A stretch of 38,815 nt of DNA, taken from positions 1 to 38,815 of IMG/VR virus record IMGVR_UViG_3300037047_000294; one strand, written 5' to 3'. Both the position numbers and the translations under genes were made by a program. The DNA is from a virus (taxonomy: Duplodnaviria > Caudoviricetes). Below, piece by piece: positions 8,461 through 12,511 of the stretch; the first letter of the stretch is position 1, and each line of letters opens with the position of its first letter. Below the pieces are notes generated by a model. It did not search any database. It had not been told where the DNA came from and saw only the letters and a program-made list of their open reading frames with translations.

Positions 8461-9066
8461 TTATTTAGTGCTTAAATAATCGATGAAATTGTTAAGCCGA
8501 GGCGAAAGGTAATAAGCTGTAAAACGCCTCATTATGCCACCCATATCGCTGTCGGTAAATTTTAAAAATGGCCTGGCCTTTATTTCGACTTTATATGCTC
8601 CTATGGCCGATTTCATTCCATAGCTCGCTTTTGTATTGTTTTTAGCGAACAAAGTTTTGCCTTTGCGTTTGCCGCTTTTATATTTTTTAAAGTGAAGAAT
8701 ATTTGTGCGCGCCGGAATGTTTATAGTGCCGCCGTGCTGATGTATAGGTGCATAATCTAAATTACTGCCGACAACGGCCTGCGTCGCGTCCGATTTTTCG
8801 GTTATCGTTCTTCTTAAATCGCCTCTATATTCAAGTATTTTTAAATCGCCCTTTTTTTTCTTTTTAGCTTTATATTTAGCATAAGCCGTATTTAATGCTT
8901 TCCAGCCAGGCCGGCCCTGCTGTTCGAAGTTTTCTTCAACGGCATTGTGCATGTCGGCGGCTACCTGCCGCATTAACGGCCTCAAATTTTGGCCGCGATC
9001 AACCATTAATGTCATTAATTTTTGGATTTTTTCAAGATATTTCATATTGATTTCTATAGGCTGCAT
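8461..9066 (-). CDS. Mu gpG-like virion morphogenesis protein
   Basis: NFEQQGRP.WK.L, VVGSNLDYAPIHQHGG, IKARPFL. Confidence 0.9.
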   Translation of the reverse strand: MQPIEINMKYLEKIQKLMTLMVDRGQNLRPLMRQVAADMHNAVEENFEQQGRPGWKALNTAYAKYKAKKKKKGDLKILEYRGDLRRTITEKSDATQAVVGSNLDYAPIHQHGGTINIPARTNILHFKKYKSGKRKGKTLFAKNNTKASYGMKSAIGAYKVEIKARPFLKFTDSDMGGIMRRFTAYYLSPRLNNFIDYLSTK

Positions 9067-9068
9067 AA

Positions 9069-9593
9069 TTACCTCGTAACTTCGTTTAGAACATTAAAGT
9101 TATAGTTCAACAGCACATATTTTTTCCAGTTATCAAATATGCCCGCCGCACATTCTGAATGGCTTTTATAAGGACCGAAAAGGCCCCAGTTGCCGATGTG
9201 ATAATATTCGCCCGTCATCATGTCCAGGCAGATGCAGACGGCGTGCCCTTCTTGTTTTCCGTCTTCTTTATCGTGATAAACTATTAAAATATTCGAATCG
9301 AGATCATGCCTTAACATCCTGCAAACATACAGGCAGAATAAAGCCCAATCGTCACAGTCGCCGGCCTTGCGCCAGGCGAAATATTCCGGGTGCATGGCGA
9401 AATCGATCTTGCCGTCGTATTTATAAGTGAAATTCCTCTGGCAGTAGTCGTTAAATATCGATAAAAACTGAAAACGGTTGATAGATTTAAGCTCCGGGTT
9501 GGTAAAAATTTTAGTTATATCAACGATGTTCCCGATTAATTTATTGCCGAAATACTGTATATTTCGAACCCACTTTTTAAATAAATATTGCAT
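9069..9593 (-). CDS. transglutaminase-like cysteine-protease fold protein
   Basis: GDCDDWA and GHAVC motifs; ATG 9593 with GGAGG SD. Confidence 0.7.
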   Translation of the reverse strand: MQYLFKKWVRNIQYFGNKLIGNIVDITKIFTNPELKSINRFQFLSIFNDYCQRNFTYKYDGKIDFAMHPEYFAWRKAGDCDDWALFCLYVCRMLRHDLDSNILIVYHDKEDGKQEGHAVCICLDMMTGEYYHIGNWGLFGPYKSHSECAAGIFDNWKKYVLLNYNFNVLNEVTR

Positions 9594-9602
9594 GACGCCT
9601 CC

Positions 9603-9631
9603 TTGACTTTGTTTGATTTTTGCGCTATAAT
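9603..9631 (+). promoter_or_regulatory. sigma70 promoter antisense to the packaging operon
   Basis: TTGACT-N17-TATAAT; predicted start about 9637-9638. Confidence 0.75.
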
Positions 9632-9636
9632 TTAAT

Positions 9637-9743
9637 AAAGGTTCCGGCCGACGCGGTGAATCTCCCGGCCGTGCTTCCATCGGTGTGAACTGGTGTTAGA
9701 GAGCTATTGGAGGGCGTGTGGGAGTCCTCCCCGGAACCTTTTT
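9637..9743 (+). ncRNA. candidate structured ncRNA (four-way junction with loop-loop pseudoknot)
   Basis: 11-bp closing stem, three hairpins (one with a GNRA loop), G-U pairs that work only on the + strand, upstream promoter, U-run at the 3' end. Confidence 0.7.
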
Positions 9744-10944
9744 ATAATTCATCTTTTATTATGATTACTCCCGGTTGTCTTTTTTTTCGCTCTATATCGG
9801 CCATGCTCGAATATCTGTATGACACCACAAATAAACTCTCTCTACTTTTTGTTGTTTTCAGAACAATGTATAATATTTGTCCTTCTCGTTTGGCAAAAAT
9901 TCTTTTTAATTCGTGATCTTGTATTATGGTGTCAGCATTTTCTATAATATTCTGTATATTTTGAAAATTCGAAAAACGAATATCTTTGTGTGATTTTAGT
10001 TTTTCCGTCAAAGTATTTTCAGATAAATAAATGGTCTGCGATTTAGTTTTTAAATCTCTTTTTGCGTTTTCGCCCAAAATGGCTACTGGAAAGTCGTTTT
10101 TGATTTTTCCTTCAAAAAACATTTTAAATGGTGCGCCATTAATTAACTCTTGCACGCACGCTTTCGCCTCTGCATATTCATATTTATCAAAATTAGGCAT
10201 ATAACCGGCCTCGCCGGGGTTGTAATTCCAGCCCGCGTCCGGCGCCATTCGAACGCCTGTTTTCGGATCGATGTAACGGGTGATCTCGGCCGGCCGGCCG
10301 CCGGCGCTTTGTGTAATAGTTTCAAAATCGGCCGCTTTAGTGGTTTCCGGCGTAATGTTCATGCCGCCGAGCTGTTCGGCGCGCAGCGCGCGTATTCGGC
10401 AGCGGCAGTTAAAGCCGTTCGGCGGATAATGCGTTTTCCAGAAAGCGTCGTCATACCTGAAAACTTTTCCATTAAGCGCGGCATGTGCCGGCCGCGTCAG
10501 GCCGTCCATTACGGCGAGATATTGCCAGTATGGCCGGTCGTCGGCGTTCTCGATCATTTCGCGGTAGCGTCCGGCCATATACGCGCTCTGTGTGTTGGTC
10601 TGGTATATAGTTTTCAAGCGATGCGGCGTTATAAAGGTTTCTTTTCCTTCTTCGTTTACAACACGCCCCCAGAAGCCCTTTTTTATTAATTGCGGCTGCA
10701 AGTTTTTTTGAAATTCCTTGAATGTGAGGCCGTTTTCAATGGAGTTTAAAACTTCATCGCGCACGGTTTTTAAAACATCGAGCTTTAAAACGCGCGACAT
10801 GGTAAACGCTTTCGCGTTCGCTTCCTGCCATAACGAATGCCAGTCTGAAGAAATAGCGAGTCCTTTTGAGCCGAAATACTCGATTACTTTCTCCGGCGGC
10901 AGATTGCACGCGTATGCCAGGTCTATATTTTTTAAATCGGCCAT
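9742..10944 (-). CDS. MuF/gp30 minor head protein with C-terminal PBECR-like nuclease domain
   Basis: RLKTIYQTN, RPYWQY, HYPPNGFNCRC core; C-terminal SH...IIENAD...YIVLK...LFVVSYR. Confidence 0.9.
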   Translation of the reverse strand: MADLKNIDLAYACNLPPEKVIEYFGSKGLAISSDWHSLWQEANAKAFTMSRVLKLDVLKTVRDEVLNSIENGLTFKEFQKNLQPQLIKKGFWGRVVNEEGKETFITPHRLKTIYQTNTQSAYMAGRYREMIENADDRPYWQYLAVMDGLTRPAHAALNGKVFRYDDAFWKTHYPPNGFNCRCRIRALRAEQLGGMNITPETTKAADFETITQSAGGRPAEITRYIDPKTGVRMAPDAGWNYNPGEAGYMPNFDKYEYAEAKACVQELINGAPFKMFFEGKIKNDFPVAILGENAKRDLKTKSQTIYLSENTLTEKLKSHKDIRFSNFQNIQNIIENADTIIQDHELKRIFAKREGQILYIVLKTTKSRESLFVVSYRYSSMADIERKKRQPGVIIIKDEL

Positions 10945-10945
10945 A

Positions 10946-12511
10946 TTATTTTCCTTCGTTCTGAACGCTCGCCCGGCCCATCAGGTCTGAAACGAATATC
11001 ATTTTCGCCAGTGATTGCTGTATCTGGTCAATATCCATATCCGGGTATAGCGCGGCTAACTTATCCTGAACATCATTGTAATCGGCCCCGGCGCGTACCA
11101 TATCAAATATGGGCGTCATAACGCCGTCCATTTGCTTTTGAAGCGCACCCGGCGTCAGTGAGTCGCTTAAATTGTCTATTTTCTGCTGGTCTATAAACCG
11201 CGGCTTTTTTTCACTTTCGGCAAACTGCTTTGCCAGTTCCGACTTTAGCTCGCCGGCTAAAATTCCGCCGGCATTATTATCGACGCCTTTAATATCTCGT
11301 TCATAAGCCGCAGGGTCAACAATTTCAAAATCTTCCTCTTCAAAGCCATAATTTTTAATATAATACTGTTTGCTGAATTTAACGCCGGTTTCGCTTAATA
11401 TTTTATCGCGTTCCGCGAGCTTTATATCGACGTCTTCTTCGGTCCACAAAGAAAAAACCGGCTCGATGCCGTCGTTGAAATTCAGTTCGCAGGTCCAGCT
11501 TATTAACTGCTTAAAAGTATTTTCAACGAGCCGTTTATCGGTGTTAAGAAAGTCGCCACGTATATCCGCGTGTACTTTGCCGAGCGCCTGTGAGCCTACC
11601 TTTCCCTGTTCGGTAGTTAAAGTCTGGCCGAGAATAGCTTTCGATATTTCAGTATTGCAGGCTTGAATAAGCTCGTTGTAGATTTGTGAATTGGCGCTTT
11701 TGCTATCTGCGTTTAAAAATTCAACGCTCGTGTCGTCGGGCGTTACTAATATAGCGTCCTGCACGGCATTTTCAAGACTGTTTTCTAATTTGTTAATATC
11801 GGTAGTATCGGTTCCGCGCGGTACTTTTGCCCAGATGGTAGGCATGCCGTATTTTTCAGCAAAAACTACCCAGAATTTCAAGCCGCCTTTTTTGAAGGAT
11901 GCCGGCCATAAAACAGACGACATAATACGGCGGCCGAAAGGATTATTATATGTCGCGTCGTGTTTTGGAACGAGGAATTTTTTATCAGGCACAGCTTCGC
12001 CGTCATATTTTTGCCTGGACTTAAACAGAAGCGAATTATCCGCTTCTTTAAAGGTAAACCATTCCGGCGGTTTTGCTATAATGTTGTATGGAATAATGTA
12101 TTTGCCCTGTTTTTTCCATATAATTTCAAGCGGCTGAAAGCCGTAGTAAGGCGTATTAAGTATTTCGGATATAACCGTGTATATGTCAGTATCATTGAAT
12201 ATTTCTTCGATTAATCCAGCCTGCTTCGTTTTTTTCTTTTCTTTGCGGTCGATTGACCATTCCATTGATAAAACGCCATTTTTACGCGACTGCACGCAAG
12301 CTGATATATGCGGATCGTACATAAGCTCGCGATAAACCTCTATGTCATTGCCCTGTTTTCTCAGTATCGGGTCAGGATCGGGCAGGTAATGCAAAAAGGC
12401 GGTAAAATTATAGGAATTTTGCCGGGTGGCGATTTCGTCGGAAAGCATTCTTTTATTAACGTTTCCGTTAAAATCAACGAAATTGTGTTTATCGATCCAA
12501 AATTTGCTCAT
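10946..12511 (-). CDS. portal protein (Mu gp29/DUF935-like)
   Basis: FAEKYGMP, ISKAILGQTLTT, GSQALGKVH. Confidence 0.93.
   Translation of the reverse strand: MSKFWIDKHNFVDFNGNVNKRMLSDEIATRQNSYNFTAFLHYLPDPDPILRKQGNDIEVYRELMYDPHISACVQSRKNGVLSMEWSIDRKEKKKTKQAGLIEEIFNDTDIYTVISEILNTPYYGFQPLEIIWKKQGKYIIPYNIIAKPPEWFTFKEADNSLLFKSRQKYDGEAVPDKKFLVPKHDATYNNPFGRRIMSSVLWPASFKKGGLKFWVVFAEKYGMPTIWAKVPRGTDTTDINKLENSLENAVQDAILVTPDDTSVEFLNADSKSANSQIYNELIQACNTEISKAILGQTLTTEQGKVGSQALGKVHADIRGDFLNTDKRLVENTFKQLISWTCELNFNDGIEPVFSLWTEEDVDIKLAERDKILSETGVKFSKQYYIKNYGFEEEDFEIVDPAAYERDIKGVDNNAGGILAGELKSELAKQFAESEKKPRFIDQQKIDNLSDSLTPGALQKQMDGVMTPIFDMVRAGADYNDVQDKLAALYPDMDIDQIQQSLAKMIFVSDLMGRASVQNEGK

Follow-up and report, generated by a model that had tools for sequence, protein, structure and literature searches.

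A kissing-loop RNA family that faces PBECR-like nuclease domains of Mu-like phages and may act as their antitoxin

A structured RNA gene converges on muF in a Mu-like provirus

The DNA analyzed here (the window; all 38,815 nucleotides of IMG/VR record IMGVR_UViG_3300037047_000294) is a Mu-like provirus with transposase, terminase, portal, MuF, G-like, capsid and tail genes. Between the portal and G-like genes, the minus strand encodes a 400-residue MuF (gpF-like) minor head protein (9742-10944; PF04233, Phage_Mu_F, E 1.2e-29), and its residues ~276-400 (9745-10119, minus strand) make up a C-terminal PBECR3-like BECR-fold domain containing K315, H319, K363, S375 and R377. Phage_Mu_F and PBECR3 were the only Pfam families found on MuF. 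The original prediction had called for an HMM check of this tail against PBECR families, and PBECR3 (PF18812) did match at E 1.7e-5, but with 25 bits the match falls under the curated cut-off of 30; PBECR3 scores ranged from 25 to 28 bits. H319 and S375 fit the His plus Ser/Thr layout described for five of the six PBECR families (Iyer 2017, PMC5512222), and among 52 family members the His and two Lys columns are at least 90% conserved.

An AlphaFold model of residues 276-400 (pLDDT 92.8) places a helix before a four- to five-stranded sheet, the order of the BECR fold. Foldseek returned BrnT (E 0.014), RelE and CdiA-CT as the best rows for the window domain, with no fold match at E 0.001, and the modeled domain of a relative gave middling scores throughout (BrnT Z 7.1, CdiA-CT Z 5.8, colicin D Z 5.7). 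On these models the domain's fold neighbors are RNase toxins, and an RNase role for it is predicted. BECR toxins cut tRNA, rRNA or mRNA (Iyer 2017, PMC5512222), and the RNase activity of PBECR domains is a prediction in that paper too.

Facing the end of muF, a plus-strand sigma-70-type promoter, TTGACT-17-TATAAT (9603-9631; -35 at 9603-08, -10 at 9626-31), matches the consensus at 11 of 12 positions, as originally predicted, and its predicted start at ~9637 coincides with the start of a closing helix. It is the top of eight sites in 8800-11600, where shuffles yield 6.2 sites at a score of at least 9/12. Three close viral contigs (L001-L003) keep both promoter and RNA with altered helices, and an exact search of viral contigs with a 22-mer from the window gave zero matches. 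The predicted transcript is a structured non-coding RNA of ~105 nt plus a U run (9637-9743, plus strand), assigned to a new family by its fold and a covariance model. Positions 9637-9741 fold at -45.7 kcal/mol (z -2.72), a value that none of 200 shuffles reached, compared with -38.1 kcal/mol (z -2.41) for the minus strand.

This fold bore out the proposed closing helix P1 (9637-47/9731-41) as well as P2 (9653-57/9668-72, loop GAAUCUCCCG) and the P3 hairpin (9678-84/9689-95), the last of variable length across the family (P3 region 22-54 nt in 94 sequences). For P4, which abuts P1 directly, family covariation supports five pairs (9709-13/9726-30) and not the seven of 9709-15/9724-30, leaving G9724 and U9725 in the P4 loop; some relatives hold an extra hairpin in this loop. 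The proposed contact between the P2 and P4 loops likewise had the right register and was one pair short, since covariation gives a kissing helix of five Watson-Crick pairs, CUCCC/GGGAG (9662-66/9720-24). As described originally, the RNA ends in a U run overlapping the MuF stop codon (9742-44); within the window, P1 followed by this U run forms the end, with no separate terminator hairpin after P1. Rfam 15, including its DUF3800 motifs, had no match to the window RNA at E up to 10 nor, with a limit of E 1, to the body of the RNA at 12 loci, so the RNA is uncatalogued there.

The next gene after muF encodes a 174-residue, transglutaminase-like accessory protein (9069-9593, minus strand; PF01841, E 0.005, below cut-off) that we place outside the module. 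Among 274 loci this gene occurs only in the window's own record and its three closest contigs, where it sits between muF and the G-like gene. It was considered as an immunity factor and ruled out, being enzyme-like and missing from the loci of the RNA family. The claim that no immunity-like ORF follows MuF was supported, and the small ORF (<150 aa) directly after the toxin gene by which MuF polymorphic toxins are recognized is absent from the window. A longer reading of the 9069-9593 ORF from 9680 and a plus-strand ORF at 9707-9916 were both set aside, the length of the RNA varying freely across the family (97-155 nt). The ribosome-binding site of the 9069-9593 gene overlaps the -35 box of the RNA promoter on the opposite strand.

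The RNA belongs to a covarying, multi-phylum family

Pattern scans of DNA alone, blind to protein, collected 26, 29 and 43 viral loci and 116 genome loci; many matches of the first pattern were due to chance. With a covariance model built from 39 sequences, 99 matches were then obtained from 100 loci, and 56 from 81 sources. After leaving out six low-scoring chance matches, the window and two truncated matches, 146 RNA copies were counted, a few of which are one element from two collections. The genome loci span Alpha- and Gammaproteobacteria, Desulfovibrionaceae, Nitrospirota, Nitrospinota, Gemmatimonadota, Fibrobacterota, Myxococcota and Hydrogenedentota, as labeled.

Covariation beside homologous domains had been named as a check on the structure, and it was found in P1, P3, P4 and the kissing helix. 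Across 98 distinct genome sequences, all nine P1 pairs, six P4 pairs and four P3 pairs of the model changed on both sides, with 87.9% of P1 cells and 98% of P4 paired. Slid controls lowered pairing from 92% to 38-47%, a comparison that applies to nested helices fitted to the model. P2 is nearly invariant (96.4% paired in alignment A5), so it offers weak covariation evidence, and its conservation is partly imposed because the scan patterns fixed its letters. The kissing helix, in contrast, was not part of the covariance model, and its three variable pairs were free in the 43-locus viral and 116-locus genome patterns. It is 98.5% paired in alignment A5 and 96.3% in A6, with three pairs changed on both sides, and all five pairs are Watson-Crick in 135 of 156 distinct RNAs. 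Among the 88 RNAs whose 5' kissing strand is not CUCCC, 73 still form five of five pairs and only two keep GGGAG. Counted as sequence types, 15 of 28 were fully paired (shuffle mean 1.7, maximum 9), and the same kissing variants reappear on separate branches of the protein tree. Together, the tertiary covariation and the invariant loop letters favor a shape-based mode of recognition.

Promoter-like scores of at least 8/12 lie upstream of 41/146 RNAs, compared with 1/146 on the opposite strand, and a terminator-like hairpin follows 37 of 84 RNAs paired with a domain gene. Both features favor the plus-strand orientation of the RNA that was originally proposed. From these alignments we conclude that the RNA is a real, conserved, uncatalogued family that spans many phyla and contains a strongly covarying tertiary contact.

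The original prediction also likened the RNA to the elbow of tRNA. The topology is alike, with a closing helix, three arms, a last arm abutting the closing helix and contact between the first and last loops. The likeness stops there: the RNA has no fixed anticodon arm, its loop contact is a 5-bp Watson-Crick helix, a T-loop motif and a CCA after P1 each occur in 3/94 RNAs, ARAGORN called 0 tRNAs, and RF00005 did not match the RNA. Six loci (L002, L003, L035, L225, L235, L255) form a subtype with a two-pair P2, a different P3 junction and the same kissing core. CRISPR repeat matches occur a few hundred bases from RNA copies at L218:510-595 and L184:61-90, and at L218 the upstream flank of the RNA promoter contains two type I-F-like repeats.

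The RNA is coupled to the PBECR-like domain

In 84 of the 146 copies, the RNA lies tail-to-tail with a PBECR-like ORF, either fused to MuF or standing alone. A profile of 52 domains found such genes in only 7/351, 14/401 and 7/400 sampled genomes. In the window and all 84 paired loci the RNA is downstream of the domain gene on the opposite strand, and the profile matches listed all lie downstream of the RNA on its opposite strand, with gene stops -44 to +68 from the model end. Comparison of loci thus shows coupling of the RNA to the domain, as the original idea of a virion-delivered RNase with an RNA had it; the system is broader than a virion effector, as stand-alone pairs and orphan RNAs exist. 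Because 21 distinct loci carry the RNA beside a stand-alone domain, its partner is the nuclease domain and not MuF. These stand-alone domains all have the His, and the compact versions consist of a 130-160 aa protein and ~100 nt of RNA. In the protein tree they lie apart from most MuF-fused domains, with weak support at the root. The loci (L066, L077, L083/L104, L095, L101, L107, L112, L114, L116, L118, L120, L125, L128, L134, L147, L148, L150, L160, L169, L173, L182) are mostly from Alphaproteobacteria and mostly lack a Pfam match, making them candidate compact toxin-antitoxin modules.

The linkage was also approached from the protein, using the 52-domain profile with the two seed genomes' own loci left out. 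Out of 21 strong matches (E <=1e-10), 11 carry the RNA at E < 1e-6 by covariance model, a count biased to the linked clade because the profile was built from RNA-adjacent proteins. Six more (L225, L228, L234, L235, L238, L243) have an antisense promoter and a closing helix that ends within ~30 nt of the stop, three (L242, L251, L255) have related folds identified by eye only, and one (L236) has an apparent insertion directly after the gene. The promoter-plus-helix descriptor is loose, firing on 246/1560 shuffles and missing 6 of the 11 model-confirmed RNAs, and is used as supporting evidence only. A generic helix-plus-kiss descriptor was too noisy for counting: it overlooked RNAs that the model confirms and frequently fired on shuffles. 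Among the weak profile matches examined, only a frameshifted solo gene (L244) has the RNA; the covariance model did not find it at weak matches that lack the His or are internal to polyvalent proteins (L245, L250, L257, L232, L246, L258).

Some tails without the His nevertheless retain the RNA (Mannheimia 3927AP2, SuMu, L051, L091, L113). Arg or Asp occupies the conserved His position in L263, L269, L051, L091 and L113, possibly marking the Arg-type PBECR family of Iyer 2017 (PMC5512222). Co-divergence of protein and RNA is weak (Mantel rho 0.25, a value obtainable from linkage alone), and one kissing sequence spans very different proteins, unlike strict cognate pairs. A strict cognate model is disfavored by the weak co-divergence and by the RNAs kept next to His-less tails.

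More distant MuF tails are also accompanied by smaller or divergent antisense RNAs (~67-105 nt), located immediately after the muF stop; these have a closing helix and loops that appear complementary to each other. They occur at L234, L238, L243, L251, L242 and L228 and in the phages POA1180 (L264), RS1 (L272), B3 (L270), RcapMu (L271) and Dulem 31 (L265), and are probably further RNA subfamilies.

Cultured Mu-like phages lose the RNA where the MuF tail degenerates

No cultured phage was found by tblastn with the window's domain, and a relative's domain as query returned eight cultured-phage records; 14 phages in total were hand-picked from search results. Mu, MP22, MuM16-1, Klebsiella ST405 and BcepMu have degenerate or absent tails, gaps of -11 to 9 nt to the next gene and no RNA; Mu's own PBECR domain is called inactive by Iyer 2017 (PMC5512222). 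Mannheimia 3927AP2 and SuMu have intact tails and the RNA (E 4e-7 and 0.003). Dulem 31, B3, RS1 and RcapMu have an antisense promoter and closing helix with no significant model match, and in POA1180 the closing helix beside the antisense promoter was seen by eye only. B23, whose recognizable tail lacks the His and the strand Ser, has no RNA, and Mushu, with a short MuF and a 129-nt gap, has no model match. Within this set, genome comparison shows that the RNA is lost where the MuF tail degenerates.

Comparison with known toxin and RNA systems

Type III toxin-antitoxin systems (ToxIN, CptIN, TenpIN) pair an endoribonuclease with a pseudoknotted non-coding RNA in phages and chromosomes (PMC12283969; PMC8860590). 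By analogy, the pair described here would join a predicted endoribonuclease to a pseudoknotted RNA, and the mechanism that we propose is theirs. In type III systems, however, the RNA lies upstream in the toxin's operon as tandem repeats with a terminator between (PMC12283969), whereas here it follows the domain gene on the other strand and has a promoter to itself. It is also a single four-helix unit beside the domain except at one duplicated locus (L194), the other multi-copy loci being orphans. By Pfam and fold rows the toxin is a BECR-fold protein, often fused to a head protein, and does not belong to the ToxN, CptN or TenpN families. The pseudoknot is a covarying loop-loop kissing type, in contrast to the H-type described for type III antitoxins, and orphan RNAs exist here, a further difference. 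Because position, repeats and toxin family all differ, we did not file the module under ToxIN, CptIN or TenpIN.

The prophage toxin AbiF is neutralized in cis and trans by direct binding of the RNA RCd22, but that pair comprises an Abi_2/AbiD/F protein linked to Cas13 ancestors and an abiF-motif RNA, unrelated to the protein family and RNA here (10.1101/2025.04.15.648962). MuF polymorphic toxins resemble the window's protein in that a predicted RNase domain forms the C-terminus of MuF within a phage head module (PMC5576092, PMC5512222). A small putative immunity ORF follows 89.4% of 191 MuF toxin genes (Jamet 2017, PMC5576092), whereas a structured RNA gene takes its place here; the available text of Jamet 2017 and of Iyer 2017 (PMC5512222) mentions no such RNA. 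Like the DUF3800-I to XI, drum and skipping-rope RNAs (Weinberg 2017, PMC5737381), which often have 3' terminators, occur also on the opposite strand and are of unknown function, this is a multi-phylum RNA tied to one protein domain; the protein family differs, and no Rfam model matches the RNA.

Within open-licence PMC papers and bioRxiv, we found no publication that describes an RNA next to a PBECR or MuF gene. The accessible portion of 10.64898/2026.09.22.753630 has no mention of MuF or BECR, and the motif is absent from six supplementary files of PMC10690425, of which three others may list the RNA as an anonymous candidate.

The RNA as a candidate antitoxin

We consider it reasonably probable that the predicted BECR-fold RNase domain and the convergent kissing-loop RNA form a two-gene module in which the RNA binds the domain and so acts as its antitoxin, perhaps mimicking the shape of tRNA as a decoy. 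Several observations lead to this reading: RNAs from protein-blind scans face PBECR-like ORFs in 84 of 146 cases even though such ORFs are rare in sampled genomes; the RNA occupies the site where most MuF toxin genes (89.4%) have a small putative immunity ORF; tail-degenerate cultured phages lack the RNA that intact-tail Mannheimia 3927AP2 and SuMu carry; 11 of 21 protein-first matches carry it and six more have an antisense promoter and closing helix; the RNA accompanies stand-alone domains as well as MuF-fused ones; its tertiary contact covaries and its loops have invariant letters; and the fold neighbors BrnT, CdiA-CT and colicin D are RNase toxins. We infer that the RNA is expressed, that the domain is an active RNase, packaged when fused to MuF, and that RNA binding neutralizes it. 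The RNA would be transcribed from its own host-type promoter, independent of the late operon, and so would already be present in a lysogen. P1 and P4 may stack, and the P2-P4 kiss would hold the RNA in a compact shape roughly like that of tRNA, in which it likely engages the nuclease either as an inhibitor or as a decoy for its substrate. Both the producer cell and its sibling lysogens would then be protected while MuF is made and packaged, and the virion-delivered domain would cleave RNA in recipients that do not have the antitoxin RNA. Pairs of a stand-alone domain and an RNA would be toxin-antitoxin modules.

The data coupling RNA to domain would serve equally well if the RNA were a partner and not an inhibitor, that is a cofactor, activator or cargo, forming an RNP with MuF-PBECR, perhaps in the virion. 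We regard this as unlikely, though as the strongest of the alternatives. It would accommodate the RNAs retained beside His-less, Arg-type tails, RNA binding has been suggested for inactive PBECR domains (Iyer 2017, PMC5512222), and DUF3800-I, drum and skipping-rope are precedents for protein-linked structured RNAs of unknown function (PMC5737381). On the other hand, there is no variable single-stranded, guide-like segment, as P3 varies but is base-paired; a cofactor role is difficult to reconcile with orphan RNAs that have no protein; and an active RNase would be left without a visible immunity partner.

Orphan RNAs and a possible wider role of the family

The remaining 62 of 146 copies are orphans with no adjacent domain, some in tandem. 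They lie near housekeeping, small terminase and defense-type genes (SIR2, ADP-ribosylglycohydrolase, Fic, RT, PIN), and no domain family member was found elsewhere in nine of ten orphan-bearing genomes tested, which may be incomplete. Good promoters precede 9/61 orphans compared with 32/85 paired RNAs, and terminators follow 5/62 compared with 37/84, so some orphans may be decaying. Simple remnants that keep a stub of the toxin gene were considered and rejected as a general explanation, because C-terminal profile stubs beside 5/61 orphans (P < 0.01; controls 3/61 and 1/61) account for few of them. These traits are compatible with captured immunity, with gradual decay once the prophage has gone, or with a function apart from the domain.

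Since 62 of 146 copies have no adjacent domain and nine of the ten genomes tested no family member elsewhere, the RNA could serve an independent purpose, as a ribozyme or a decoy against host tRNA-cutting defenses that merely hitchhikes with PBECR genes. Orphans make up 42% of copies, several near defense-type genes, and a multistem junction with a pseudoknot across many phyla would suit such an RNA. We nonetheless judge an independent RNA improbable, because it would not account for the fixed tail-to-tail spacing with fused and solo domains, the loss of the RNA when the tail degenerates, or the similarly arranged divergent RNAs next to tails that are more distant. Less probable still is a cis-antisense, type I-like regulator whose duplex destabilizes the 3' end of the muF message or uncouples downstream genes: the layout is convergent and the window's late transcript must pass through the RNA gene, but at most loci the RNA overlaps the coding region by no more than a few bases, if at all, the covarying pseudoknot and invariant loop letters would be needless for antisense, and orphans have no cis target.

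Under the antitoxin reading, the orphans would represent immunity genes that were either captured or left behind. A wider proposal, which we hold tentatively and rate below the antitoxin reading itself, is that the family constitutes a class of RNA immunity factors against virion-delivered phage RNases, with a tRNA-shaped decoy replacing the immunity protein, lysogens protecting their kin, and bacteria capturing single or tandem orphan copies against Mu-like phages. If the antitoxin reading is true, the family would be an RNA-antitoxin family whose toxin fold (BECR), RNA fold and gene layout are unlike known ones and, within the literature searched, the first RNA to provide immunity against a polymorphic toxin or one carried by virions. 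It may also explain the missing immunity ORF after many extended MuF genes, and would bear on the targets of PBECR domains, two questions that the 2017 papers did not settle (PMC5576092, PMC5512222). Function aside, the result is a new RNA family of many phyla with a strongly covarying tertiary contact.

Several orphan loci have further features. Two different orphan RNAs stand side by side at L122:623-1071, L183:1482-1787, L162:1031-1587 and L145:1482-1732, some with different kissing sequences, resembling small immunity arrays. At L106, L131 and L145 (~1482-1592), the same orphan RNA directly follows the gene of a TonB-dependent receptor, which Pfam identifies at L106 and L145. The genomes are Bombella and a relative within the Acetobacteraceae, and this placement suggests that the host has retained the RNA. 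At L190:134-212, an orphan RNA runs straight into a tRNA gene on the same strand.
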